A DNA stretch of 64,000 bases from Rickettsiales bacterium (GTDB taxonomy: Bacteria; Pseudomonadota; Alphaproteobacteria; Rickettsiales; SXRF01), in contig JAJTHB010000005.1 of NCBI GenBank assembly GCA_021299465.1, positions 173,044 to 237,043 on the forward strand, read 5' to 3'. A program made the translations under genes and the position numbers. The notes under the pieces are model-generated. The model was not told where the DNA came from. It saw only the letters and a list, made by a program, of their open reading frames with translations, and ran no database searches. Each line of letters begins with the position of its first letter. Positions within the stretch are counted from its first letter, which is position 1. Shown here in pieces: positions 3,872 to 59,169 of this stretch.

Positions 3872-4210
3872 CTAGGCGTTCAGGCTGGTTTTTTCTAAGC
3901 GGCTGTTATCGTTGCTGGCGTAGAAGTCATGATCAAAGCCGTAATAATCTTTGATTTTGGTTTTGATCTGAGCCGTCGGCTCCCCATAGCCTTTTTCAAC
4001 AATCACCGCAAAATGCGGAATATCCCCTTTTTCAAGGCAGCTCATCATTTGCTCATGAAGCATCGCGCTGGCAATGGCATAGTAAAACATACGTTCCTTC
4101 TTCAGCTCGTCATAAGCCGGAATAAAATACACGTTAATCTTTTTTGCGGCCTCATATTTGGATTTATAATGAGGCAGGCTTTCCATCATGTCCTGATCGG
4201 GGTTGAGCAT
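3872..4210 (-). CDS. Hypothetical protein, conserved partner of two-gene module copy A
   Basis: Aligns by eye with 18750-18977 and 58126-58455; TGATG coupling to the upstream peptide. Confidence 0.75.
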   Translation of the reverse strand: MLNPDQDMMESLPHYKSKYEAAKKINVYFIPAYDELKKERMFYYAIASAMLHEQMMSCLEKGDIPHFAVIVEKGYGEPTAQIKTKIKDYYGFDHDFYASNDNSRLEKTSLNA

Positions 4211-4389
4211 CAGTCAACTCCTTTTCCAAGGTGATCAGGGCACTTGCTGGCAACCGTTCTTGCTACATGAGTGCCAAGACTTCCTTCACCACAAAGAACA
4301 CCTTTGGAGCCTATGGTGACGTGCTCTGGCTGCTGCCCCCCACGGTGGTTTCGTGTATTCATTCCGTCTACTAAATCACGAACACTCAT
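4210..4389 (-). CDS. 59-aa low-complexity peptide, module copy A
   Basis: AAGGGAG RBS upstream of ATG 4389; stop overlaps the next start; ends HLGKGVD. Confidence 0.6.
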   Translation of the reverse strand: MSVRDLVDGMNTRNHRGGQQPEHVTIGSKGVLCGEGSLGTHVARTVASKCPDHLGKGVD

Positions 4390-4492
4390 AACGTCTCCCT
4401 TCATTTCAATCTACTAGATCGGGAGACATTTTTCACGTTTACATCTGTGAATCTTTTGTGACAGATCGCAGACGAATTGATGACAGTCTAGT

Positions 4493-7105
4493 CTATTTTT
4501 GCTTGCCAAGCGTCTGCGGCAAGTCATTCACCTGCACACGCACCACATGCTTGGAAAGGTCAGGATTTCCTGGCCCGTGGAGCACTTCGCCTTCGAGCTT
4601 TTCCTGCTCACTTTGCGCAGGGTTTCTCTTATGCTCTTCCTGTTTTGCAAGTGTTACAGAAAGCTTAAACCAGCCTTTCTCGGAGGTAAATGGAAGGCTA
4701 TCATCTTTACTTTCTATTAAGAGGGAGCTATTCGCCGCGAGCTTTAAATCCTGCGCGACAGATTCCACCGCCTGCCAGTTCGCCGCAGCATCACTTATAA
4801 ACACTTCAATCTTGTCAACTGGGTTTTTGATCGAAACGCTTGCTTCGGATTTTGCTTTACGCACGACATTCAGAATATCCACCGCAGCGATGCCTGCCAG
4901 CTCGTGTTTTTCATCCAGCGGGAAATCAGCGGCCACTGGCCACTGGCCACGCGCATGCACAGAGCCATGCTTCGCATAATCATCAGCGAAGAGATGGCTG
5001 TAAATCTCCTCGGTGACATGAGGCACAAATGGCGCAAACAGTTTGAGTAGTGCATTCAGGCAGTGATAGAGCGTGCATAGCGCGGATTGTTGATTGCCAG
5101 GCACTTCGCCGTAAGAACGAGCCTTGACCAGCTCAAGATAATTATCGCAGAAATCATTCCAGAAAAAATCTTCGATTGCCACCCGCGCATCTGAGTATTC
5201 AAAGCGCTCAAACTCTGGCGTGGCCTTATGCACCGTGCGATGGAGGCGCGAGAGTATCCATAGATCCAGTGGCTCGCTGATAAGGCCGTTTTTAACATCC
5301 TTAGCGGCGCTGGTTGGCTTTATTTTAAGTTTATCAAGGTTGAGCGCGGCAAACTGGCTGGCATTCCAGATTTTACCCACCAGCTTGCGGCCGATTTTGA
5401 GTAAATCTTCAGAAAAAGCCGTATCAGCGCCGAGGCGAGAAGTCGACGCCCAGTAGCGCACCGCGTCCGTTCCTTTTTCCTCAATGAGCGCCACGGGGGT
5501 TACAACATTACCCTTAGATTTGCTCATTTTGGTTTTGTCAGAAGCTAAGCACCAGCCGGAGATCATCAGGTTTTTCCACGGCACGCAGTCTTCATGCAGG
5601 TGCGCTTTCACGATCGTGTAAAACGCCCATGTGCGTATAATCTCGTGCGCCTGCGGGCGGATATCGGCGGGAAACAACTTGTTTTGCTTTAATGATTTCG
5701 CATTAATCTGCGGCGAAATGGACGAGGTCGCCCACGTATCCATCACGTCCATATCAGGCGTAACTTCATCTCTACCATACCCTTTAGGGGTATCTACCAG
5801 CGGGTCAACAGGCAGTTGATCTGGCGATGCATAAATCGCCTTTCCAACTTCGCCTTCACGCTTCGAATACCACACTGGAAAAGGCACACCGAAAAAGCGC
5901 TGGCGCGAAATGCACCAGTCTTCCTTAAGACCTTCAATCCACTGATTCAGCCGAACGCGCATGTAGTCAGGATGCCAATGGCACTCCGCGCCCTTTGCCT
6001 TTAGCGCTTCTTTTTTATCCGTGATCCGCACGAACCATTGTTCGGTGGGAATAATCTCAATCGGCGTGCCGCTGCGCTCGGCGCATTTGACGCTATGGGT
6101 CATCGGCGTCTGCTTTTTTAGCTTTCCTGCGGCTTGCAGCAACTCCAGAATTTTTGCATTCGCTTGCTTTGGCTTTAGGCCGTTTAATTCGGCTATTTCA
6201 CTTTGCAGCCTTCCGTCTTTGCCTAAAATAGCTTTCAGCGGCAGGTTATATTTTCTCCACCACTCCTTATCCGTATCATCCCCAAAGGTACAACACATCA
6301 CAAGACCAGTGCCTTTGCCTTGTTCTACGGCCTCATCCGCAATCATCGGCACTTTTACACCAAATAGCGGGATGATGGCATGTTTGTCTTTGTAACTTGC
6401 AGCATTCGCATTTTCCGGATGATACATCACCGCGACGCATGCGCCGAGCAGTTCCGGACGGGTGGTCATGATGAGTAGCGGCGAGCCATCTTCCAGCGTG
6501 AACTCAATCTCATTCATCGTGCCCGGAAGTTCTTTATTCTCAATTTCTGCCTGCGCAATGGCGGTTTGATCCACCCAGTCCCAATAAGTTGGCCTAAAAT
6601 CGCGGTAGGCATGGCCTTTTGCCACTAAATCCAGAAATGATGCCTGCGAGAGTGCGCGTACATCGTCGTTGATCGTCTGGTATTCCTTGCGCCAATCCAC
6701 GGAAAGGGCGGTGCTTTTAAACAGTGCGCGGAATTCGTCTTCCGCTTCTTTCACCACCTCTTTACACAGCGCCACAAACTCCGCGCGCGGCATACCCGTA
6801 CCCCGTACCCCTTTGATCTTTTCAACAAGGCGCTCGGTGGGCAGGCCATTATCATCAAAACCCATAGGGTAGAAAACATCTTTGCCGCTCATGCGCTGGT
6901 AGCGCGCGACAAAATCCGCCTGTGTGTAGCTGAAGATATGCCCCATATGCAGAAGGCCGGAGACGGTTGGCGGCGGCGTATCGATGACAAAGGTTTTTTC
7001 GCGCGGCTGGTCGTCGCGGAAATGATACACATCGCTGGTTTCCCACACGCGCTGCCAGTGCTTTTCACGTTCTTTGTGTTCGTAGTTTTTAGGCAGCGGT
7101 TTCAT
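4493..7105 (-). CDS. valS: Valine--tRNA ligase, archaeal/rickettsial type, with ~49-aa C-terminal extension
   Basis: PTVSGLLHMGH (HIGH motif), KMSKS, WCISRQRFFGVPFPVWY, RPQAHEIIRTWAFY; lacks the bacterial C-terminal coiled-coil arm. Confidence 0.95.
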   Translation of the reverse strand: MKPLPKNYEHKEREKHWQRVWETSDVYHFRDDQPREKTFVIDTPPPTVSGLLHMGHIFSYTQADFVARYQRMSGKDVFYPMGFDDNGLPTERLVEKIKGVRGTGMPRAEFVALCKEVVKEAEDEFRALFKSTALSVDWRKEYQTINDDVRALSQASFLDLVAKGHAYRDFRPTYWDWVDQTAIAQAEIENKELPGTMNEIEFTLEDGSPLLIMTTRPELLGACVAVMYHPENANAASYKDKHAIIPLFGVKVPMIADEAVEQGKGTGLVMCCTFGDDTDKEWWRKYNLPLKAILGKDGRLQSEIAELNGLKPKQANAKILELLQAAGKLKKQTPMTHSVKCAERSGTPIEIIPTEQWFVRITDKKEALKAKGAECHWHPDYMRVRLNQWIEGLKEDWCISRQRFFGVPFPVWYSKREGEVGKAIYASPDQLPVDPLVDTPKGYGRDEVTPDMDVMDTWATSSISPQINAKSLKQNKLFPADIRPQAHEIIRTWAFYTIVKAHLHEDCVPWKNLMISGWCLASDKTKMSKSKGNVVTPVALIEEKGTDAVRYWASTSRLGADTAFSEDLLKIGRKLVGKIWNASQFAALNLDKLKIKPTSAAKDVKNGLISEPLDLWILSRLHRTVHKATPEFERFEYSDARVAIEDFFWNDFCDNYLELVKARSYGEVPGNQQSALCTLYHCLNALLKLFAPFVPHVTEEIYSHLFADDYAKHGSVHARGQWPVAADFPLDEKHELAGIAAVDILNVVRKAKSEASVSIKNPVDKIEVFISDAAANWQAVESVAQDLKLAANSSLLIESKDDSLPFTSEKGWFKLSVTLAKQEEHKRNPAQSEQEKLEGEVLHGPGNPDLSKHVVRVQVNDLPQTLGKQK

Positions 7106-17173: not shown

Positions 17174-18460
17174 ATGTCGATTGAAGAGATTATTCCTTCG
17201 CTTAAACTATCTGACAGCAAATTGCTGGAACGTGCACAAACAAAAGCAGTTTATGCACTCGCAGATGCCTATGAAGCTGATTTAAAGGCGCTAATTGATA
17301 AGTTAGAAAAAAAGTACCATTTGAAAATCGGTAAGTTGATAGGGGTTGGCTCACTTGCGCTGGTTTTTGAAATAGAGCAGCCCGCCAAGGAAGGTGAAAA
17401 AGGCGTGGAGGTGTTCAAGAAGTCGGTTATTAGAATTCAGGGTAAAGAAAACACCGGTTTTGTTGATAACCCGCTTGCTATCCAGCCGCTACTTAACATC
17501 TCGAATGATGAGCTTGGAGAGGATAGCTACTACTCAGCTACTATCGTTCCGCGTGCTGAGATGGAGCGGGATGGTAAAGCAGCATCTCCTGATGAAATTC
17601 TACACACGATCGCTGCATTCAACGCGAAGAAGCAGTTTCCGCGTTTGTTTGATCTTTCCGAGGATCAGTTTGGGTTTATACCTGGTATTGCAACACCGGT
17701 ACTCATTGATATCAGCTCCATGTCTCATGATGATCCGGAGCAGCAGAAGAAAAAAATTGGATTTGGCGGTGTAGATAAGTTTATCGATACGCTTTCGGCT
17801 AAAACGGGCAAAAGCAAGGATGAGATCTTATCAAATAAGGAAGGCCTTGATCAGCTGGTGGCGCTGGAGATGGCGTCTCGCCGTCTGAATTCAGATGCGC
17901 TGCAAGAGTTTCGCGATGCCGATATCAATCTCGAAACACCGGCACAAAAACTCGCGCGGCAGCTTCTTGATACCCCCCTTCACTGGACTACCGAGGATAG
18001 TAACGGAAATGATGTTGATACTTATAACTTTAAGCAGTTTCTTGAGTATGTGACGACTGCCGATTATGCGGATGCTAATAAACCTGGAGGGATTATAGAT
18101 GTATCCAAAAAGGCGCAGCCCTCGCTGGTGGAGTACTATGAGTTAAAGAAGCATGCTGGCGATATCGTGGCGCTTCTGACACGAATTGAAAAAGGCCACA
18201 GCAACATCGGCCATGCTGAAAAAGAAACGCTGAAAAAGGGCTATCAGCTGGTGGCTTCGATTGCAGCCAACTACAACGATGTCAGACCCTTTGTGGAATC
18301 GATTGGTGCGGTAACTGAAAAACTGACAGGGAATGTCAATAAGTCAGCGGTTAATGACGCAGAAGAGGGCACGCTATTTAATTCGATAATGGTTCAATAT
18401 AGTCAGTTATTACAGGAGCTTCATATAGAAGTTCCCAAAGCTCGCCGTCTAGGCGGCTGA
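17174..18460 (+). CDS. Hypothetical protein with atypical protein-kinase-like N-terminal half
   Basis: KLIGVGSLALVFEI (Gly-loop-like), FDLSEDQFGF (catalytic-loop-like), PVLIDIS (DFG-like); helical C-terminal half. Confidence 0.5.
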   Translation: MSIEEIIPSLKLSDSKLLERAQTKAVYALADAYEADLKALIDKLEKKYHLKIGKLIGVGSLALVFEIEQPAKEGEKGVEVFKKSVIRIQGKENTGFVDNPLAIQPLLNISNDELGEDSYYSATIVPRAEMERDGKAASPDEILHTIAAFNAKKQFPRLFDLSEDQFGFIPGIATPVLIDISSMSHDDPEQQKKKIGFGGVDKFIDTLSAKTGKSKDEILSNKEGLDQLVALEMASRRLNSDALQEFRDADINLETPAQKLARQLLDTPLHWTTEDSNGNDVDTYNFKQFLEYVTTADYADANKPGGIIDVSKKAQPSLVEYYELKKHAGDIVALLTRIEKGHSNIGHAEKETLKKGYQLVASIAANYNDVRPFVESIGAVTEKLTGNVNKSAVNDAEEGTLFNSIMVQYSQLLQELHIEVPKARRLGG

Positions 18461-18504: not shown

Positions 18505-18747
18505 ATGGAAAACGATACACCCATATATAGTTTAATCCCGCCATCAGAGCTGAGTGGTTTGTCTGCTGAGACCGCGGCAAGAATCTCCGAAAATCCTATG
18601 CCAACATCACAAAGGGTTTCTAACTTAACACCGCTTGAACTGGTTGGTCAGGGACAGCTATCAGCTAAAGATGCTGGCAAAAGTGACCCAGTTAGCCAGC
18701 CAATGCCATCAACTGGAAAAGAACCTTCCGGAAAAGGCAGGGGCTAG
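18505..18747 (+). CDS. 80-aa Ser/Pro-rich peptide, module copy B
   Basis: Ends SGKGRG; 2 nt before the partner gene. Confidence 0.65.
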   Translation: MENDTPIYSLIPPSELSGLSAETAARISENPMPTSQRVSNLTPLELVGQGQLSAKDAGKSDPVSQPMPSTGKEPSGKGRG

Positions 18748-18749
18748 CC

Positions 18750-18977
18750 ATGTTTGCCCGCAAGCAGGACGAGCTGGTTTTTCTTTCTAAAGGTACGCAT
18801 GAAGGTCGCCATACGTGGCACTATCTTCTAGTTAAAAAAATGAAGCTGCCGCAGCTCATGGAAGCGGTTAAGCAGGGACAGGTTGACCTTGCCCAGTATG
18901 GGCGTATTTTATTTTCCGGCTTTGGCGCTAATCCGCCAGCGGATGTCACGTTGCTGGTTCGTCAGAAATTCGGCTGA
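18750..18977 (+). CDS. Hypothetical protein, conserved partner of module copy B
   Basis: WHYLLVK...QGQVDLAQYGRILFSGFGANPP...FG aligns with the copy A and C partners. Confidence 0.8.
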   Translation: MFARKQDELVFLSKGTHEGRHTWHYLLVKKMKLPQLMEAVKQGQVDLAQYGRILFSGFGANPPADVTLLVRQKFG

Positions 18978-38579: not shown

Positions 38580-39674
38580 CTATAGCGCAGCCGAAAGCTG
38601 ACTATCAGCGGCTGGCTGGTTTTCAAGGCGTGCTGCAAAGGAACGATTAGGCTCCAGTTTATGTTTTATCGTTCTAGGATCAATCATTTCAGGCTGGGAA
38701 TTTTGAATATAAAAAGCATCATCGTCATCAATGAATGACTTTGGCACACCTAATGCCGCACTGACATCATGTGCAACATCAGGGCGCGGTGTTTTATTCG
38801 CACGTTTCTTAGCCGAAAGGCGGCTAATCGCATTCCAGATAATAATGGCAGCACTTGTGGCATAGAGGTCCAGCGCAATCACTTTGCCAAACCGGTAGGT
38901 TTTGTTTGCCTGCTGAAGCTCGGTTAATTCTTTCGTAATTGGAGTTGCGGCAATGGCTTTGCCTTCTTTACTCAAAAAAGCAAATTTGCGGGCGAACCAA
39001 TCTTCATATTTATCGAACCAGTATTTATCGGTCGTTTTATCTTTGCCAAGCAATATGTCTGCTGTGATGAAGGATGTTGCAACTGTTGTGAAAGCTGCAA
39101 GCCTGCCTTTGATGACATCGGTCCAGTCTTGTTTTGGAATATCCTTCAGGCGCTCGTGGGCAATTTCTACTTCGCCGGGTTTGCCAATCTTGCGATTAAA
39201 GAAATTGGCAATGGATTCACGGCTATTCTCAAGCCATTTGAGCATTGGAGCAAAGAGATTGCCACCGTGAAACAGTGTCATGGTACTGGCTAAAGCCGCA
39301 GCAACTCTTGCATGTCCCTCTGTTTTTCCGCCTAGTGGATAGATTGGGTTTTCAAGCAGTACCTTTTCAAACCACTGCTGAAACTTTTTGAAAATGTTAG
39401 GGATGCCAGCATAGCTATCTTTGGCATATTTAGGATTAGCAGCAAAGGCTAGAACCGCAGTAATCGCAATGATAAACGCCTTTCCAGTAAGGAACTGGAA
39501 TACATCATAGGCACGCTCGCCGGTTGTTTTTTTGGAGATATCAATGGGCGGTTTGGTTTTCGTCGCTTCGCCTTGTGCAGAGTCGTTCTGCGCTATCTGT
39601 ACGCCAGCAACAGCTGACGGCGAGGTGTCTTGGCGCGCCTTAGTCTCACTCTCTGATGTTGGGCGCTGAACCAT
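38580..39674 (-). CDS. Hypothetical membrane protein, tandem paralogue 3
   Basis: PKQDWTDVIKGRL motif shared with the two neighbours; TM segments. Confidence 0.75.
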   Translation of the reverse strand: MVQRPTSESETKARQDTSPSAVAGVQIAQNDSAQGEATKTKPPIDISKKTTGERAYDVFQFLTGKAFIIAITAVLAFAANPKYAKDSYAGIPNIFKKFQQWFEKVLLENPIYPLGGKTEGHARVAAALASTMTLFHGGNLFAPMLKWLENSRESIANFFNRKIGKPGEVEIAHERLKDIPKQDWTDVIKGRLAAFTTVATSFITADILLGKDKTTDKYWFDKYEDWFARKFAFLSKEGKAIAATPITKELTELQQANKTYRFGKVIALDLYATSAAIIIWNAISRLSAKKRANKTPRPDVAHDVSAALGVPKSFIDDDDAFYIQNSQPEMIDPRTIKHKLEPNRSFAARLENQPAADSQLSAAL

Positions 39675-39679
39675 TGCCG

Positions 39680-40762
39680 CTAGCTCATTCCGGGTTGCAG
39701 GCTGGCAGAATTATCTGGCGATACACGATCAACAAATCGATCGGAACCTGCGCGCTGCTGGTTGATGAGTATATTGGTTTGCCGTGGCTTAACCTGCTCG
39801 GAGAAAAGCTTTTTAGGTGTGCCTGATGGATCTTCGTCCAGCGGAAGCGACGGCGTATCTTCAATAATCGATGCTTTTGGTGTTTTGTCCTTTTTTGCAC
39901 CGTTAGTTAGATAAAGAGTCATCGCGGTGATTTTAGTGAAGACCGTATCCAGCGCGCCTAATCCTACATAACGCGCAAGAACGCCTTCGCCTTTTAGCCT
40001 GGTGGCCAGCTTATCGCCCTTGGGAAACATGCTGACACCTTTTGCCAGCACATCATTAACAACCCAGTCTGTTGTACGAGCTTTACCACCATAATGCCCT
40101 TCGTGGGTAATCATTAAAGGGTTAGCATCATATGGGTTGAGCGGGAATTGTTCGTGGGTGGGTTTGGTTTTGTCGGCCGCAAGCTTATCAAGTGCGGTTC
40201 CGGTTCCTAGTACAAACGCTGACGCAAGAACGCGCCTGCCGATCACGCGCAGCCAGCTCTGCTTGGGCTGCTCTTTTTCAATATAAATTTCATCAGCGGT
40301 CAGCTGGTGGCCGTCCGGCGCAGTTTGATCAATACCAAACTTTTCGTTTAGCCAGTGCACAATTGGGCGCTTGCGGTCTTCCATGAATTTCATGGGAACA
40401 AGCAGCAGCCAGCCACCGCCCGTCAGTGCCAATGTTTCCATGACGACTTTGGTGTTGTAGTAGCCCTTATTGAGAGGCACCTTGCCAACTTTTTCTACAC
40501 CCTGGGCGATTTTACCAACGGCATATTGGAATGGTTTTTTCAGGCGGCCAGAAATCAGCTCATCAGCCAGTATCACCGAGCCCACCAGATTCACCCAGTA
40601 ATTGATGCCCGAATAAACTGTCCAGTTATACCATTTTTCACCCTTGGACATTTCATGCGGCAACGCGGCGCCAGCAGCTGCGGCTTCAGGAGCGGCATCC
40701 ACCCTGATATTCGCATTCTTGCCGGCTACAATCACCGTGCTATCTGTTTTTATCTCAGTCAT
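39680..40762 (-). CDS. Hypothetical membrane protein, tandem paralogue 2
   Basis: PKQSWLRVIGRRV motif. Confidence 0.75.
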   Translation of the reverse strand: MTEIKTDSTVIVAGKNANIRVDAAPEAAAAGAALPHEMSKGEKWYNWTVYSGINYWVNLVGSVILADELISGRLKKPFQYAVGKIAQGVEKVGKVPLNKGYYNTKVVMETLALTGGGWLLLVPMKFMEDRKRPIVHWLNEKFGIDQTAPDGHQLTADEIYIEKEQPKQSWLRVIGRRVLASAFVLGTGTALDKLAADKTKPTHEQFPLNPYDANPLMITHEGHYGGKARTTDWVVNDVLAKGVSMFPKGDKLATRLKGEGVLARYVGLGALDTVFTKITAMTLYLTNGAKKDKTPKASIIEDTPSLPLDEDPSGTPKKLFSEQVKPRQTNILINQQRAGSDRFVDRVSPDNSASLQPGMS

Positions 40763-40771
40763 TGTTTCTAA

Positions 40772-42304
40772 TTAAGTTCCTAGCTGTAGACCTTGTTGTT
40801 CCTGCGACTGCATAATTTTATCCGCAAACGATGCCGATGCTTCTGAGCGCGGCGCTTTTTTTGCTGGTACGCGGTTTGAAAATTTATTTTTCTCTGGCGT
40901 GCAATGTTTTTTAGAGCTGTGCTGGGGTTCTTGTGTTCCAGCAATGCTATCTTCGATAACGGCAACGGCTGGCACAACACTCACCTCGTTCAAACCTTGC
41001 TCGTCATGACATGCTTCCTTGTGCGATTTTTTGGTAAAACCAACTTTTGAAAGCAGGTTGTGAGCAGGCTTCCATTTGGTTGCACCGTAAATTACAACCG
41101 AAAGAATGGTAGTCAGGAAGAATTCTTTAGTAACGAAAAGGCGCGATTGCTCAGCGAATACAGCGCGCTCGACATGCGCAAAGAGTTTGCTGTCTTTTTT
41201 AAGCCCAGCCTCGATATGCTCAATCTCAGCCATGATTTTCAGCTGTTCTTCCGGGTTGCCATGGTATTTTCGTATCTCACTGTGGTGCCCAATAATTTGT
41301 TTACCGGCTTCTAATATTTCAGGCGGTGCATTGGTAATCTTTAGAATATCTTCAAGATTTTCATGTTGTATACCCGATAGCTTTACTTTGTTTGCTGATA
41401 AAAACTTAGCAAGCCAGCTCCTGACTTTTTCTGGCATCCAATCATACATCTTGTTGCCAAAGCCCCAGCCTGCAACCGAGTCGATGTTTTTGTACATGCC
41501 GGGTTTACCCTGGCTGATATGGTTATGCTTGAGAATGCTATCAACGTTATCACGCACCTGATCGATGCTGAAAACAACAGCTAGTGCTACAAGTCGTGCG
41601 CGAATCAGGTTCCACCATGTTTCTTTTGGTTCATCGCCTGGTTTGAGTGCGGCAGCTTCTTTTTCTTCTGGCGTGCGGTTCGGGTGCAGCCAGTTATCAA
41701 CTTTATTGAGGAATCCTTCGCGATGGTTTTCAAGATACCAGACCGGCGCCAGCGCGACAAAACCAGCAATACACATGAACAAGGTCTCAATCGCTGAGCG
41801 ACGAGATTTAGCTGCACGATAGGCTATCTCAGCTGTTTTTTCTGCCTCAGGAAGGGCGTTGAGACCTTTATTTAACTCGACGCCGCCTAATTTGAATGCA
41901 CCATTAACCGCTTTTCCCGGTAGTGAAAGTGCAAACGAAATAACTTTGCCTGCCTCCGATTTTGCCAAGCTCTCCTTCATCCAGTCCGCGCCTTTGGTGG
42001 TCGCGAGGTAGTAGGTGATGACGACAGAAGCAACGTTGTTAAAAATCTGGTGAAGTCCGCCAAAATTTACGAGATGGAAGGCGATGCGCGCGCCTTTTTT
42101 ATTAAAGCGGTTTTCGTGAAGTTCCTGAAGTTTCTTCTCTTTTTCTGATAATGGTTGTTCGTTAGCCTTGCTATCGGTTTGATTCTGAACATTTGGCGAG
42201 GAGTGGCTATGTTTGGTATCAACCTGCACAACAACGGTTTCCTGCTGCTCATGATCAGCGGAATTGGTATTTTCTTGTTTTATTTCAATATTTAACTTCT
42301 TCAT
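40772..42304 (-). CDS. Hypothetical membrane protein, tandem paralogue 1
   Basis: PKETWWNLIRARL motif. Confidence 0.75.
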   Translation of the reverse strand: MKKLNIEIKQENTNSADHEQQETVVVQVDTKHSHSSPNVQNQTDSKANEQPLSEKEKKLQELHENRFNKKGARIAFHLVNFGGLHQIFNNVASVVITYYLATTKGADWMKESLAKSEAGKVISFALSLPGKAVNGAFKLGGVELNKGLNALPEAEKTAEIAYRAAKSRRSAIETLFMCIAGFVALAPVWYLENHREGFLNKVDNWLHPNRTPEEKEAAALKPGDEPKETWWNLIRARLVALAVVFSIDQVRDNVDSILKHNHISQGKPGMYKNIDSVAGWGFGNKMYDWMPEKVRSWLAKFLSANKVKLSGIQHENLEDILKITNAPPEILEAGKQIIGHHSEIRKYHGNPEEQLKIMAEIEHIEAGLKKDSKLFAHVERAVFAEQSRLFVTKEFFLTTILSVVIYGATKWKPAHNLLSKVGFTKKSHKEACHDEQGLNEVSVVPAVAVIEDSIAGTQEPQHSSKKHCTPEKNKFSNRVPAKKAPRSEASASFADKIMQSQEQQGLQLGT

Positions 42305-50750: not shown

Positions 50751-52154
50751 ATGAAAGCTCAGTTGCGCTTGGAAACCACGCTTGATGATGTGCTCGCTCC
50801 GATCTGGGAGCGGATTAGTGAAAAACTTAAAGGTTTATATGGTGAGGCTGTGCATCGCAGCTGGCTCAGGCCTATGCGCTATGCGGGTCTTGACGGCCAG
50901 AAGATTCAGCTGAGCGTGCCAACACGCTTCATGCGCGAATGGGTCAGCACCCATTATGCCGATGACATACGCCACTTCTGGCATGAAGAAAAAGAGGCAG
51001 AAGGCCTTGCAGTAGAATTTGTGATTGCCAGCCAGAACAGCGAACCAGTCGCTGCTAAATCAGTTTCTAATATCGTGACGCCTTCTTGGAATGCTTCTGA
51101 TAGCAGTGATCCGATTTTGCAAATGGGCGCCTCACTTGATCCACGCTATACGTTTGAAAATTTTGTTGTTGGTAAGCCTAATGAACTTGCGCATGCTGCC
51201 GCGCGCCGCGTAGCCGAATCACCGCAGGTGGTGCAGGGGTGTAACCCGCTGTTCCTGTATGGTGGTGTTGGGCTTGGTAAAACCCATCTTATGCACGCCA
51301 TCGCCTGGCATATCCGTACCCATACGCCTGAGCGCCGCGTGATGTATTTGTCGGCTGAAAAATTCATGTACCAGTTCATCAAGGCGCTGCGCTTTAAAGA
51401 GGCGTTTGCGTTCAAGGAACAGTTCCGCTCGGTTGATGTGCTGATGATCGATGATGTGCAGTTTATCAGCGGCAAGGATTCCACGCAGGAAGAGTTTTTC
51501 CATACGTTCAATGCACTGGTTGACCAAAACAAGCAGCTGATTATTTCAGGTGATCGCTCACCGTCGGATCTGGAAGGTATCGAAGAGCGCGTTCGTTCCC
51601 GCCTTGGCTGGGGCTTGGTCGCTGATATTCACGCAACAACCTATGAGCTGCGCCTTGGTATTCTTCAGTCGAAAATTGAGCAGATGCCACAGCTGCAAAT
51701 TCCTACCAAAGTTATCGAATTTCTGGCCCACAAAATTACATCAAATATTCGTGAACTTGAAGGTGCGTTGAACCGATTGGTTGCACACACCACGCTGGTC
51801 GGCAGACCCATGACGCTTGAAGGCGCGCAGGAAGTGCTGCATGATTTGCTTCGCGCCAATGATCGCCGCGTGTCGATTGATGATATTCAAAAGCAGGTGG
51901 CGAATCACTTTAATATCAAAGTATCGGATATGCATTCGGCGAGGCGCTCGCGCGTGGTGGCCAGGCCAAGGCAGATCGCCATGTATCTTTCTAAAAAACT
52001 CACCTCCAAAAGCCTGCCGGAAATTGGCCGAAAATTCGGCGGCAAGGATCATACAACGGTGATGCATGCGGTGAAGCGTGTTGAGGAACTGATGGCAAGC
52101 GATACCGATTTTGCTAAAGATCTTGAACTCCTAACCAAGATGGTGCAGAACTAA
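50751..52154 (+). CDS. dnaA: Chromosomal replication initiator DnaA
   Basis: [37 protein letters not shown]. Confidence 0.99.
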
Positions 52155-52176
52155 CCCATCAGAACATGGAGCCGTT

Positions 52177-53352
52177 ATGCCAGCAGCAGCGCAAACCTTA
52201 GAAAAAACCTCAAGCCCAACCAAATCTCAGCCCGTGAAGTTCACGGTTGAGCGTGCGCCGCTGCTTCGCAGCCTCGGCCATGTGCAGTCGGTTGTCGAAA
52301 AACGCGGCACCATCGCGGTACTTTCTAATGTTAAGATTGAAGCAAAAGCCGATGGCATCGAGCTGACCGCAACCGACATGGATATTGCCATAGTCGAAAA
52401 AGTACCGGCGAATGTTTCCAAACAGGGCGCTACCACCGTGCCTGCGCATATGCTCTATGATATCGTTCGTAAACTGCCGGATGGCGCAGAAATTGAGTGC
52501 GCGGTTGGTGAAGATGGCGGCAAGATGACGATACGCTGCGGCCAGTCACGCTTCTCGCTGGGTTGTTTGCCGATTGAAGATTTCCCGGTGATGTCGGATG
52601 ACGATTTAACGCATAGCTTTTCGATTAAATCAGCAGAATGCATGGCGCTGGTTTCCAAGCCAAGCTTTGCCATGTCCAATGAAGAAACGCGTTATTATTT
52701 GAACGGTATTTATCTGCATGCAACCGGCAGCGGCGCTAATAAAGTGTTGCGTGCGGTGGCAACTGACGGTCATCGTCTGGCGCGTATTGAAGTGGCGCTG
52801 CCAGCAGGTGCTAACGGTATGCCGGGCGTGATTGTCCCGCGCAAAGCAATTCATGAAGTTCGTAAACTACTAGAAGGAGCAGAAGGCGATGTCGAAGTTT
52901 CTCTCTCAGATACAAAAATTCGCTTCGTTTTCGGGAGCGCTGTATTGGTCTCTAAGCTTATTGACGGTAACTTTCCTGATTACGAGCGTGTAATTCCCTC
53001 GGGCAACGACAAGATTCTTGAAGCGGATTGCAAGCTGCTGGCTCAGGCGGTGGATCGTGTATCGGTTATCTCCTCGGAAAAATCGCGCGCGATCAAGCTG
53101 CATATTGAAAATGGCAAGCTCACTTTATCCGCCACCAGCAGTGAACATGGAACGGCTAGCGAGGAAATCGATGTAACCTATTCCTCTAATTCACTCGATA
53201 TTGGTTTTAACTCGCGCTACATGCTCGAAATGATGTCGCAGATCGAGGGTGATACCGCGCAGTTCCTACTCAACGACGGTGCATCGCCGGCGATCGTTCG
53301 TGATACGGCAGATGTCGGCTCACTCTATGTTATCATGCCAATGAGAGTGTGA
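52177..53352 (+). CDS. dnaN: DNA polymerase III beta clamp
   Basis: LTATDMDI, ETRYYLNG, VATDGHRLA, YVIMPMRV. Confidence 0.98.
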   Translation: MPAAAQTLEKTSSPTKSQPVKFTVERAPLLRSLGHVQSVVEKRGTIAVLSNVKIEAKADGIELTATDMDIAIVEKVPANVSKQGATTVPAHMLYDIVRKLPDGAEIECAVGEDGGKMTIRCGQSRFSLGCLPIEDFPVMSDDDLTHSFSIKSAECMALVSKPSFAMSNEETRYYLNGIYLHATGSGANKVLRAVATDGHRLARIEVALPAGANGMPGVIVPRKAIHEVRKLLEGAEGDVEVSLSDTKIRFVFGSAVLVSKLIDGNFPDYERVIPSGNDKILEADCKLLAQAVDRVSVISSEKSRAIKLHIENGKLTLSATSSEHGTASEEIDVTYSSNSLDIGFNSRYMLEMMSQIEGDTAQFLLNDGASPAIVRDTADVGSLYVIMPMRV

Positions 53353-53367
53353 AACTGAGATGATCCG

Positions 53368-56963
<3,596 letters not shown>

Positions 56964-57019: not shown

Positions 57020-57814
57020 ATGGCCGCTCCTGACTTTTTTTGCCGAACTCTATCTGCTCGTCGCAGCAGCGGCTTTACGTTGCTTGAGATTTCTATCGTT
57101 CTGCTTGTGCTTTCATTGATGATGGGCGGCTTGCTGGCGATGGTCGCTCAGGAAACGCGTCGCAGTAAAATGGCTGAGCTAAAAATGAAAATGGATGCCA
57201 TTGAGTATGCATTAGTTAGTTACTCAAAACGCGCCACTACGCTTGCACTTCCTTGTCCTGCAAATCCTACACTGGCTTTGGAGCATGCTGATTTTGGTTT
57301 TGCCGTAGCAGCGGGTTGCAGCAGTATTCCATCGCCCGCCTATCGCGATGGTAGCAGTGCGGCAGGTACCGTTCCGGTCAGAACACTTGGACTGCCTGAT
57401 GAATATGCCTTTGACCCTTGGGGTAATAGATTTACTTATGCGGTTGGTCTGCTAATCACGTCAACCAATGCACTTATAACTTACCCGGTCACATCAACTG
57501 CTGCCTCGCAGATTAATTTTAGGGATACTAACGGAGTTGATTATGACAACGTTGTCGCCGTAGTTGTCTCGCATGGCATGAATGGGTTTGGTGCATTTAG
57601 TCGAACGGGCCAGAGAAAAGCGGTTAGCTCAACCAATGCCAACGAGCGTTTAAATTGTGGATGCACATCCGATACAGCAAACAGCTACTCAAATCGTTAC
57701 ATATTCGGTTCATTTACTGGAGATGCTTCAACTGCCTCTGCTAGATTTGATGATGTTGTTCGTGGTTACCAGCGCAATTTCTTTTTATTAACCAATGATA
57801 TAGTTATTCCTTAG
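57020..57814 (+). CDS. Type IV pilin / T2SS pseudopilin-like protein (prepilin N-methylation motif)
   Basis: G|FTLLEISIVLLVLSLMMGG cleavage/methylation motif; PDEYAFDPWGNRFTY. Confidence 0.85.
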   Translation: MAAPDFFCRTLSARRSSGFTLLEISIVLLVLSLMMGGLLAMVAQETRRSKMAELKMKMDAIEYALVSYSKRATTLALPCPANPTLALEHADFGFAVAAGCSSIPSPAYRDGSSAAGTVPVRTLGLPDEYAFDPWGNRFTYAVGLLITSTNALITYPVTSTAASQINFRDTNGVDYDNVVAVVVSHGMNGFGAFSRTGQRKAVSSTNANERLNCGCTSDTANSYSNRYIFGSFTGDASTASARFDDVVRGYQRNFFLLTNDIVIP

Positions 57815-57891: not shown

Positions 57892-58122
57892 ATGAAGGCT
57901 TTTTTTGGCTCCGATGGAGCATTGCAAGTGGTTGCTGTGAGTGGTGCAATCGAAGCAAATAGTCCAGCCGCCAATCTTGTTACAGAAGCCATTCAGCAAA
58001 CCAGCTCTCGAAATTTTTCCGATTTAAGTTCGGGTGATTTATCGTCGATTGTTACCCTTCCAGCAGCGTCATCCCATTTATCTTTACCAATGTCTCCCAA
58101 TCCTCAGGGGCGCGGGCGGTAG
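57892..58122 (+). CDS. 76-aa Ser/Pro-rich peptide, module copy C
   Basis: GGGGGA RBS before ATG 57892; ends PNPQGRGR; 3 nt before the partner gene. Confidence 0.65.
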   Translation: MKAFFGSDGALQVVAVSGAIEANSPAANLVTEAIQQTSSRNFSDLSSGDLSSIVTLPAASSHLSLPMSPNPQGRGR

Positions 58123-58125
58123 ATC

Positions 58126-58455
58126 ATGGTGAGTGTGCATTTATCTCCGCCTTCATCAAGTCGTCACATGGCGGACTTATTATGCACGATCATTGTTTTG
58201 TGCCAGGCGAGTGATGAGCGCGGCGATCCTTTTTGGAGTTACCTGTGCCTAAAGCCGAGCATGGCGCAGGCCTTTCGTGAGGCGCGTTTGAAAGGCTCAT
58301 GCAATCTCGACGATTTTGGCACCATCATTGAACATGGTAAAGGTAACGCAGTCCCACTTGATGTGAAGCTTCGTATGGAGCGTGATTTCGGTGTGAATCA
58401 TAGGCTGGAAGATGATCTTGCCAAGGCGATTGAAGCCAGAAAACAAATCCAATAA
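58126..58455 (+). CDS. Hypothetical protein, conserved partner of module copy C (alternative start 58168)
   Basis: FWSYLCLK...KGSCNLDDFGTIIEHGKG...DFG aligns with the copy A and B partners. Confidence 0.8.
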   Translation: MVSVHLSPPSSSRHMADLLCTIIVLCQASDERGDPFWSYLCLKPSMAQAFREARLKGSCNLDDFGTIIEHGKGNAVPLDVKLRMERDFGVNHRLEDDLAKAIEARKQIQ

Positions 58456-58464
58456 ACTCAGACG

Positions 58465-59169
58465 ATGAAGCCTATTGTTATTCTTACCGGAGCGGGCATA
58501 TCCGCAGAGTCCGGCCTTGCCACCTTTCGTGCTGCGGATGGCTTGTGGTGCGGTCACCGCGTCGAGGATGTCGCAACACCGGAAGCTTACGAGCGGGATC
58601 CTGAACTTGTTCATCATTTTTATAATGAGCGGCGCCGTCAGCTTAAACAGGTGAGGCCAAATGCTGCACATGAAGCTTTGGAACGGCTTGCAAACCACTA
58701 TCCAGCACGCGTGACAATTATTACCCAAAATGTCGATGATCTGCATGACCGCGCTGGTTCATCTGGTGGTTTGCTCCACATGCATGGCGAGCTGCTTAAG
58801 GCAAGGTGCGAGGTCAGTGAACAGGTTTTTGCATGGCAGGAAGATTTAGAAACGAAAACCCTATGCTCCTGTTGCCGTAAACCCGGCAGGCTGCGGCCTC
58901 ATATTGTCTGGTTCGGCGAAATGCCATTTTACATGGATCTCATTGAATCTTTGCTCAGCCAGTGCGGGACTTTTGTTTCGATCGGTACCTCAGGCAATGT
59001 GTATCCGGCAGCCGGATTCGTACGAATCGCCAAAATGCACGGCGCGCACACGCTCGAGCTTAACCTTGAGCCATCACTTGGCAAAAATTTATTCGATGAG
59101 CATCGTTACGGCAAAGCAAGTGAGATTGTGCCCGCTTATGTCGAAGAATTGCTTGCCTCGCTAAAGTGA
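58465..59169 (+). CDS. cobB: NAD-dependent protein deacylase (sirtuin, CobB class)
   Basis: [44 protein letters not shown]. Confidence 0.92.

Follow-up and report, generated by a model that had tools for sequence, protein, structure and literature searches.

Small accessory proteins coupled to a neighboring gene are already familiar as a general kind. Class I chaperones of type III secretion resemble the proteins described here in being small, acidic and encoded next to their client, and in the short, extended and poorly conserved segment that we propose is bound. Coupled operon pairs in which a terminal segment undergoes fusion or fission have the same layout as our units: stop and start codons overlap or are separated by 2-3 nt, and the Shine-Dalgarno (SD) sequence lies inside the upstream open reading frame (ORF). 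As in our A group, the same segment is fused or free depending on the genome. Such pairs are a layout and not a function, and what is unusual here is that one small family stands repeatedly behind unrelated genes. PqqD-like recognition elements of ribosomally synthesized and post-translationally modified peptides (RiPPs) are also similar, with about 90 amino acids (aa), three strands plus helices and an adjoining short peptide gene, and a peptide might bind to our proteins, too, as an added strand. In the PqqD-like fold, three strands are followed by three helices. The KTSC domain (PF13619) shares with our proteins a small size of about 60-80 residues and a helix that has A/S-x-x-G at its end and comes after an aromatic-x-Y strand. 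It, too, can make up a small protein by itself, occurs in phages, and has a link to an aminoacyl-tRNA synthetase (at the C-terminus of LysRS). KTSC has been described as DNA-binding (PMC9503650). In this study, we analyzed a stretch of 64,000 nt (the window) from a Rickettsiales bacterium (contig JAJTHB010000005.1, positions 173,044 to 237,043), in which three loci, units A, B, and C, each hold a short peptide ORF followed closely by a second small gene, here called the partner. An earlier note, made from the letters alone, had read the three loci as diverged copies of one conserved obligate pair. We found that the partners belong to a set of six paralogues of a small alpha/beta domain, the core of which comprises about 80 residues, whereas the peptides are not one family but fast-evolving coding segments just upstream of the partner. 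Our best explanation, held tentatively and at somewhat less than an even chance, is that the partner is a small adaptor that is co-expressed with, and binds, an upstream tail or mini-protein.

The relationship among the partners, which had been seen by eye, was confirmed by BLASTP and profile searches. BLASTP matched partner B to partner C (E 2e-9) and partner A to partner B (E 6e-5), with no pairwise match between partners A and C. A profile of the three partners found two further paralogues, D and E, in the same 1.95-Mb genome (E 3e-15 and 1e-11), and a sixth, F, was recovered with three-partner and five-sequence profiles. The count of three copies was therefore too low for the partner, of which the genome has six, and too high for a homologous pair. 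All six ORFs of units A, B, and C had been given correctly with their positions, lengths and junctions, as an ORF check showed. The six partner genes are the following:

3872..4210, (-) strand: partner A ORF, 112 aa; valS-linked orthologue group; family profile E 1.5e-44
18750..18977, (+) strand: partner B ORF, 75 aa; minimal core domain, basic (pI 9.9)
58126..58455, (+) strand: partner C ORF, 109 aa; the copy used for structure modeling
contig C36:156916-157149: paralogue D, found with the three-partner profile
contig C31:2065-2295: paralogue E, found with the three-partner profile
contig C4:108241-108786: paralogue F, E 0.002 with the three-partner profile and 6e-10 with the five-sequence profile

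In an alignment of 87 sequences, the Tyr of the aromatic-x-Y motif (Y39 in partner C) and both Gly residues of the G-x-G motif are near-invariant, and the [DE][YF]G-x-I strand and a P are also conserved. In the C-type alignment, near-invariance also extends to the Gly that precedes the third strand and to the final [FY]G. The consensus proposed earlier for the partners agrees with these columns. The ratio of nonsynonymous to synonymous substitution rates (dN/dS) of the partners within a genus was 0.02-0.15 (0.02-0.05 for A and 0.05 for B), and the orthologue clades had 93-100% bootstrap support, so that old paralogy under selection, here purifying selection, was the right description for the partners. 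The family is mostly acidic, with a median pI of 5.2-5.5, and partner B, at pI 9.9, is an exception.

The spread of the family was then examined in larger collections. A locus search with partner C alone led to one contig of a metagenome-assembled genome, and the partner profile gave 993 matches at E<=0.001 among 1.84 billion protein cluster representatives from metagenomes. All named matches are 'hypothetical protein', and no Pfam domain is recorded for any of the matches. The family is carried by 36 of 41 related genomes with 1-25 copies each, the highest number being found in a 2.5-Mb genome. It is present in all genomes of the window's own bacterial family (25/25, the window's genome and 24 relatives), and outside that family an even sample of the class had it in 7 of 199 genomes, in single copy each. 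The expansion of the domain took place within a single order of alphaproteobacteria with small genomes. Most members consist of one domain and measure 75-130 aa, tandem two-domain members have 150-200 aa, and the domain is also found once or twice inside or at the end of long metagenome proteins with protein-kinase, TPR, ZZ, ankyrin or HEAT domains. These stand-alone, tandem and multidomain occurrences indicate that the partner is a self-standing domain. Long multidomain representatives, with Ser/Thr kinase, TPR, ZZ zinc-finger or ankyrin domains, include P0010, P0016, P0034, P0036, P0085, P0026, and P0082, with the partner domain often at the very C-terminus, and P0063 has an N-terminal region that appears hydrophobic by eye, followed by five tandem partial domain copies. 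Scans of the six ORFs and of paralogues D and E with Pfam, NCBIfam, PHROG, and PADLOC gave nothing above threshold, in line with the earlier remark that no named family was recognized. The partner family is thus undescribed in the protein-family libraries and papers searched. It is sizeable, has no name, model or recognizable structural relative, and merits a family definition.

We next compared the peptide ORFs, which have the following positions:

4210..4404, (-) strand: peptide A ORF, 64 aa (first ATG) or 59 aa (ATG at 4389)
18505..18747, (+) strand: peptide B ORF, 80 aa
57853..58122, (+) strand: peptide C ORF, 89 aa from TTG, or 76 aa from the ATG at 57892
4218..4223, (-) strand: AAGGAG Shine-Dalgarno of partner A; read in frame, it gives K-G of the G-K-G end of peptide A
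18730..18743, (+) strand: purine-rich Shine-Dalgarno-like stretch GGAAAAGGCAGGGG of partner B; it encodes the G-K-G-R-G end of peptide B

Pairwise local alignments of peptides A, B, and C did not score above shuffles (p 0.50, 0.75, and 0.26), and phmmer gave no cross-group match among the peptides. BLASTP aligned peptides B and C over their last 7 residues only (E 0.18). A shared peptide motif, which had been proposed from the letters, was therefore not supported. We also considered that the peptides might be decayed versions of the partner domain, in analogy to the tandem two-domain proteins, and rejected this because the hidden Markov model (HMM) of the family matched none of them. The peptide and partner ORFs overlap by 1 nt in unit A (TGATG, at 4210) and are separated by 2 nt in B and by 3 nt in C, where both share one reading frame. 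All three units thus have the layout of translational coupling, with the stop near the start and the SD contained in the upstream ORF. Ahead of the partner starts, the DNA reads GGAAAAGGAGTTGACTGATG in A, GGAAAAGGCAGGGGCTAGCCATG in B, and GGGCGCGGGCGGTAGATCATG in C. The Gly-Lys-Gly codons in A and B (GGA AAA GG[A/C]) form the purine-rich SD region of the partner, which in A contains a textbook AAGGAG 7 nt before the ATG, and the GRGR codons of peptide C form a G-rich run 6-18 nt before the partner ATG. Since the Gly-Lys-Gly codons coincide with the ribosome-binding region of the partner, the shared ending is a by-product of translation signals, and the G[KR]G end that had been taken for a peptide motif is, in A and B, the ribosome-binding site of the partner read in frame. 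By-eye likeness of peptides can therefore come from an in-frame ribosome-binding site together with low-complexity composition, which calls for caution in motif hunting.

As the peptides are mutually unrelated, the three loci are not one repeated two-gene module. The view of one architecture and a conserved obligate pair also fails for the other paralogues in the genome: D has no upstream ORF, E has no peptide, and the short ORF of F is not adjacent. This last ORF encodes 60 Ser/Gly-rich residues (MSFDMPIRDEDRL...GAGGKSNRR), lies about 110-210 nt upstream of F (contig C4, about 108.8-109.0 kb, (-) strand) after a long ORF, and resembles the C-type peptides in composition, with no significant similarity to the other peptides. 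These findings bear on another explanation, in which the upstream ORFs and tails would be functionless remnants, duplicates or upstream ORFs kept for the ribosome-binding site of the partner and for termination-reinitiation, while the partner acts independently. This explanation agrees with the low-complexity, fast-evolving and mutually unrelated peptides, with the SD origin of the G[KR]G end, and with D and E working without any peptide. It also agrees with the spacing: whatever the length of the peptide (47-115 aa), its stop is invariably found -4 to +20 nt from the ATG of the partner. On the other hand, when the three junctions were folded as RNA to look for hidden start sites, they did not differ from shuffles (z -1.1, -0.8, and +0.7), so that no stable RNA structure masks the partner starts. 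Together with the protein-level constraint described below for units A and B and the model of unit C, this leads us to regard functionless segments as rather unlikely. By dN/dS and ORF retention the peptide ORFs look translated, as had been assumed, and probably are; their sequence is little conserved, and an HMM of the C-type peptides fails across genera.

In unit A, the upstream gene is valS, the product of which carries a C-terminal extension:

4493..7105, (-) strand: valS, upstream gene of unit A; Pfam tRNA-synt_1 and Anticodon_1
4493..4642, (-) strand: ValRS C-terminal tail of about 45-49 aa, ...LHGPGNPDLSKHVVRVQV...GKQK, beyond the anticodon-binding domain

The Pfam domains of ValRS end near residue 765 of 870. 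We found a full-length 45-aa ValRS tail (RNPDQ..HEKLEGK.LHGPGxPDLSKHVVKVQV..SL.RQK) in 13 genomes, all of the same bacterial family. In 10 of these 13, the partner begins -4 to +14 nt from the valS stop with no peptide ORF between, and the A-type partner thus directly follows valS; pairing with a peptide is therefore not obligate across relatives. The core of the tail is invariant over 10 genera although synonymous sites are saturated, which indicates that the tail is constrained as a protein and argues against a functionless remnant. Where ValRS has no tail, a spacer of 160-570 nt holding a short ORF precedes the partner. This spacer ORF is tail-like in genome G012 and less clearly so in G016 and G006. 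In G005, G008, and G017 it is a different ORF of about 65 aa (...GFKPNADGMKW..QPKILVAGAYKxIRTAAxKAR...), with about 70% identity by eye across the three genera, and such conservation is not expected of a remnant either. A sequence related to this second spacer ORF is fused to ValRS in G015. Thus, the A segment in relatives is either a fused C-terminal tail or a split-off mini-ORF.

The window's genus is mixed in this respect, as a free 64-codon ORF accompanies the tail in G000, G002, and G003 and G001 has the tail only. Peptide A is probably a diverged free copy of the ValRS tail. BLASTP between the two gave E 0.001 with 12/28 identities (shuffle p 0.0045), and of the short upstream ORFs scored with an HMM of the tail, four A-group peptides took the top ranks. 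Peptide A is retained as a 64-codon ORF in G002 and G003 (dN 0.37, dS saturated). That peptide A looks like a copy of the valS 3' end, while valS here retains its own tail, is also what a leftover duplicate would look like. Both the ValRS tail and the A-type partner are confined to one bacterial family (f1). In this family, ValRS has no Pfam-detected C-terminal domain past the anticodon-binding domain. Two unrelated-looking conserved tails were observed, type 1 (...LHGPGxPDLSKHVVKVQV...) and type 2 (...KPNADGMKW..QPKILVAGAYK...), and each is fused or a free mini-ORF depending on the genus (window 4493-4642, (-) strand; loci L009, L012, L015-L018, L020, L027, L033, L046, and L100-L106). This fused or free pattern at valS is new to us.

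Unit B stands behind a gene of a different kind:

17174..18460, (+) strand: gene for a 428-aa protein, upstream of unit B; without Pfam match

The orthologue of peptide B in G003 has 80 codons without indels and a dN/dS of 0.28 (0.05 for partner B), a value that speaks against a functionless ORF. An orthologue of B in metagenome contig L096 has the same downstream ferredoxin-like and yggT genes, and P0040, an orthologue of partner B, has the same downstream synteny as the window copy. In L096, a 265-aa homologue (L096:199-996, E 3e-23) of the window's 428-aa protein overlaps the start of the B orthologue by 4 nt. Residues 25-45 of peptide B resemble the C-terminal tail of this 265-aa protein in one weak local match (E 0.003), and the B segment probably has the same fused or free relation as in the A group. 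No similarity was found between peptide B and the window's own 428-aa protein. The 265-aa homologue ends where residue ~270 of the 428-aa protein aligns, so that the latter has an extra C-terminal region of about 160 aa; a Pfam match was found for neither.

Unit C lies between two conserved neighbors:

57020..57814, (+) strand: pilin-like gene, PF07963, N-terminal methylation motif; conserved left neighbor of unit C
58465..59169, (+) strand: cobB (Sir2 family), PF02146; begins 9 nt past the partner C stop; conserved right neighbor

The pilin-like gene is syntenic with a C-type unit in 11 related loci. An ORF of 57-115 aa ends -4 to +18 nt from the partner start at every C-type locus examined (13 loci of the tree and four more, that is, 17 genomes of about 15 genera). 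As a frame of about 80 codons is open in 17 genomes, its retention is not due to chance. Among the C-type peptides, only within-genus pairs were detectable (phmmer 1e-5), and a cross-genus HMM run against all ORFs of the window's genome recovered neither peptide C nor peptide B. Peptide C also showed no similarity to the pilin-like protein. By eye, a strand-like [ST]-x-[VI]-[VA]-G stretch is common to the C-type peptides and is followed by an amphipathic helix, or two of them, and then by a disordered tail. A 194-codon frame in G018 was considered as a natural peptide-partner fusion and rejected as a chance open frame, the true peptide ORF being in another frame. We modeled the in-frame fusion of peptide C and partner C, with the TAG read through, by AlphaFold2. 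The model had a predicted template modeling score (pTM) of 0.65 over 200 residues, and peptide residues 11-50 formed strand, strand and helix with a predicted local distance difference test (pLDDT) score of 71-78, with no alignment depth there. Since a pTM ceiling of about 0.5 would be expected if only the partner of about 100 residues were ordered, the peptide seems to be placed against the partner. The model thus gives a hint that the N-terminal module of peptide C docks on partner C, and an ordered module is a further point against a functionless peptide.

To define orthologue groups, a maximum-likelihood tree of 85 members was combined with identification of their neighbors. The A-type clade (support 100/100) stands after valS, the C-type clade (98/88) between the pilin-like gene and cobB, and the E-type clade (100/99) directly after acnA. 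Paralogue E begins 42 nt past acnA, and AcnA has an ordinary C-terminus. The D-type clade (93/78) belongs to a cluster resembling a gene transfer agent (GTA) or prophage, where it lies between the genes for an HK97-like capsid and a head-tail adaptor, an address kept in at least 11 genomes from several families of the order. Partner B groups among the short members in the tree, and its address is behind the 428-aa protein, also termed kinase-like. B-like short members in relatives closely follow DHH/DHHA1 phosphoesterases, a PIG-L deacetylase and several proteins without Pfam match, and some members outside the four named groups are behind 2-hydroxyacid dehydrogenases. In the window, the flanking genes are valS and asd for A, ffh and a ferredoxin-like gene for B, and gyrB, the pilin-like gene and cobB for C. 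Each old paralogue therefore has a fixed address, usually as a downstream cistron with a stop-start junction. That the same small domain is repeatedly coupled downstream of unrelated genes makes this address pattern unusual. Together with the short coding segment in between, which is fused in some genomes and free in others, the pattern is a hint that housekeeping enzymes, ValRS among them, may have a dedicated small partner in this uncultured lineage of alphaproteobacteria.

Among the 85 family genes, 64 have a same-strand ORF whose stop lies -30 to +25 nt from their start, compared with a crude genome background of 35%. The start codons of the relatives were set by rule as the most upstream ATG before the domain, and single gap sizes may be off. 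The idea that a short ORF lies immediately upstream held in part: an ORF of 45-130 aa ends in this interval before 28 of the 85 genes, while 36 have an ORF of more than 130 aa there and 21 have none. At random genome positions, an ORF of 45-130 aa ends in such an interval in 13.5% of cases and one of 75-130 aa in 4.5%. The enrichment of short upstream ORFs is largely due to one orthologue group. At two loci, L055 (G019) and L083 (G016), a second family member preceded by an 88-aa or 137-aa ORF lies about 700 nt downstream of the acnA-linked E-type copy, which may be a local tandem expansion.

The address of the D-type members raises the possibility of a phage or GTA origin, in which the family would be a head-associated or regulatory protein, the chromosomal paralogues domesticated or selfish copies at gene ends, and the peptides incidental. 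Besides this address, orf146 next to D matches phrog_5707 (a group for which the function is not known), copy number ranges widely from 1 to 25, and a weak sub-threshold likeness exists to KTSC, a domain common in phages. However, the family gave no PHROG match, tblastn against 50,697 phage records found none, no structural match was obtained in BFVD, and inheritance of the A, C, and E groups, beside housekeeping genes, is vertical and stable. We therefore consider a phage or GTA origin quite improbable. A tblastn search against plasmids gave one weak match, in Runella. In the window's genome, the D cluster (contig C36:155416-158649, locus L004) consists of the capsid gene, orf146, D, a 251-aa ORF without Pfam match and the head-tail adaptor gene; in distant families of the order, the gene order is just capsid, D, adaptor.

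In the explanation that we tentatively prefer, the partner would be made together with the upstream product through translational coupling, and it would bind the tail or mini-protein encoded upstream, serving as its small, acidic adaptor or as a chaperone-like protein. The bound segment would perhaps be added as a strand to the three-stranded sheet of the partner. A fast-evolving coding segment stands directly before the partner in three orthologue groups. Three indirect observations favor binding: the ValRS tail and the A-type partner occur in one and the same bacterial family only; constraint on the protein sequence is seen in the ValRS tail, in the second spacer ORF and in peptide B; and the fusion model hints at docking. 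The idea of a substrate with its chaperone or adaptor, one of several put forward in the earlier note, would thus survive in changed form, with the bound segment being the tail or mini-protein of the upstream gene. Several observations weigh against this explanation. The D-type and E-type members have neither tail nor peptide, and the C-terminus of AcnA is canonical. The tails of other upstream proteins have no common motif. Without the C group, the excess of coupled ORFs is modest, with 42% long ORFs versus the 35% background. The C-type peptides have no detectable cross-genus conservation, which fits a sequence-independent role, and just the best of the five fusion models reached pLDDT 75.

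A bolder form of the adaptor idea, which we consider unlikely, is that the family consists of lineage-specific 'tail readers', each paralogue recognizing the C-terminal extension or split-off mini-protein of one neighbor. Binding would then control the stability, assembly or location of the neighbor, for example ValRS or the kinase-like protein, and the recognition segment would be free to shift between fused and free-standing states. If true, tail readers would be a previously undescribed way to attach a regulatory subunit to housekeeping enzymes, and they would explain what the conserved ValRS tail, which is restricted to this bacterial family, is for.

The fold of the partner was examined with an AlphaFold2 model of partner C built with 87 homologues (pLDDT 87.9, pTM 0.70). 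Helices (α) and strands (β) follow one another in the model as α-β-β-α-β-α-α. Foldseek, which the earlier note had suggested running on the partner, gave nothing at E<=0.001 against the PDB and BFVD, and the best match was Borrelia Pur-alpha (E 0.25). The fusion model likewise had no PDB match at E<=0.001. KTSC was the sole named family with any signal, with sub-threshold matches in 14 of the 87 members (E<=0.1), all on the same stretch of about 25 residues (KTSC positions 23-51). Paralogue D scored 14.7 bits and members in relatives 18-20.6 bits (best E among the 87 members, 5.6e-4), and the D-type copies of four relatives also gave sub-threshold matches. True KTSC genes score 73-83 bits. As the Pfam gathering score is 25 bits and no member exceeds 20.6, none qualifies as KTSC by this score. 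The KTSC model gave no match to partners A, B, and C at E<=1. In hhalign, the 87-sequence profile aligned with one true KTSC protein over 25 columns (probability 2%, E 0.023), a weak test with a single KTSC sequence. The central YxY motif of KTSC is present in the partners as W/F/Y-x-Y, and three residues alone do not prove membership. Unlike the partners, KTSC has no counterpart of their C-terminal half (strand, G-x-G, PP, helix, [FY]G, helix), and its DNA binding contrasts with the mostly acidic partner family. KTSC is therefore a lead and not an assignment.

Two other candidates were rejected. A PDB sequence search with the 87-sequence profile matched only the inter-domain segment of Fe/Mn superoxide dismutase (E 0.08-0.12), which shares the local motif G-x-P...[LV]...[IM]...[FY]G-x-x-[DH]. 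This likeness is short and without significance, metal ligands or a fold match. One member, P0170, is annotated 'superoxide dismutase' by JGI; the label is probably an annotation error, given the short local resemblance to the Mn-SOD inter-domain segment. DUF2610 (PF11020) lies in P0010 at 959-1037, with the partner domain elsewhere (1265-1353 and 1385-1450), and the DUF2610 model matched no member of the partner family.

As the partner is small and mostly acidic, we also considered a secretion pair, in which the partner would be the chaperone of a peptide or tail that serves as an effector or as a signal for secretion. The family adjoins many proteins without Pfam match in relatives, and unit C adjoins the pilin-like gene. 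Adjacency to a putative substrate does hold, but the acidity does not extend to B (pI 9.9), and no neighbor is known to be secreted. The upstream genes include those for cytosolic ValRS, aconitase, 2-hydroxyacid dehydrogenase, DHH phosphoesterase, and PIG-L deacetylase; thus, unlike the clients of type III secretion chaperones, the putative clients of the partner include cytosolic housekeeping enzymes. Foldseek showed no likeness to known secretion chaperones, class I chaperones have no sequence or fold similarity to the partner, and no secretion system is linked to the family, with no apparatus genes beside units A, B, and C. A secretion pair is for these reasons very unlikely.

Two small and tightly coupled genes, in a multi-copy family with tandem two-domain forms, would also suit a toxin-antitoxin or toxin-immunity pair, or a RiPP precursor with its recognition protein. 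Stray weak matches to Imm58 (E 0.033) in one member and to a RelB-like protein in another point the same way. However, PADLOC, Pfam, and NCBIfam gave no toxin, antitoxin, immunity or PqqD/RRE match for the six ORFs, and Foldseek found no RRE or antitoxin fold. The PqqD-like elements differ from the partner in the order of secondary structure, with no PqqD match in Pfam or Foldseek and no biosynthetic enzymes nearby, and modifying enzymes, proteases and transporters are absent beside units A, B, and C. In one genus after another, orthologue groups keep their places beside valS, acnA, and cobB, unlike what is expected of a pair that moves as a unit. These readings, all raised in the earlier note, found no positive evidence, upstream genes including valS, acnA, and dehydrogenases, and we regard them as extremely improbable.

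Two further observations were made in the window. The genes dnaA, dnaN, recF, and gyrB stand in a row at 50751-56963 on the (+) strand, just before the pilin-like gene and unit C, and unit C is therefore probably near the chromosomal replication origin. Beside groEL, at 38580-42304 on the (-) strand, three adjacent genes encode proteins of 364, 360, and 510 aa without Pfam match. These proteins have alike C-terminal ends, with [SR]F[AV][AD][RK][LVI] about 13 residues before the stop.

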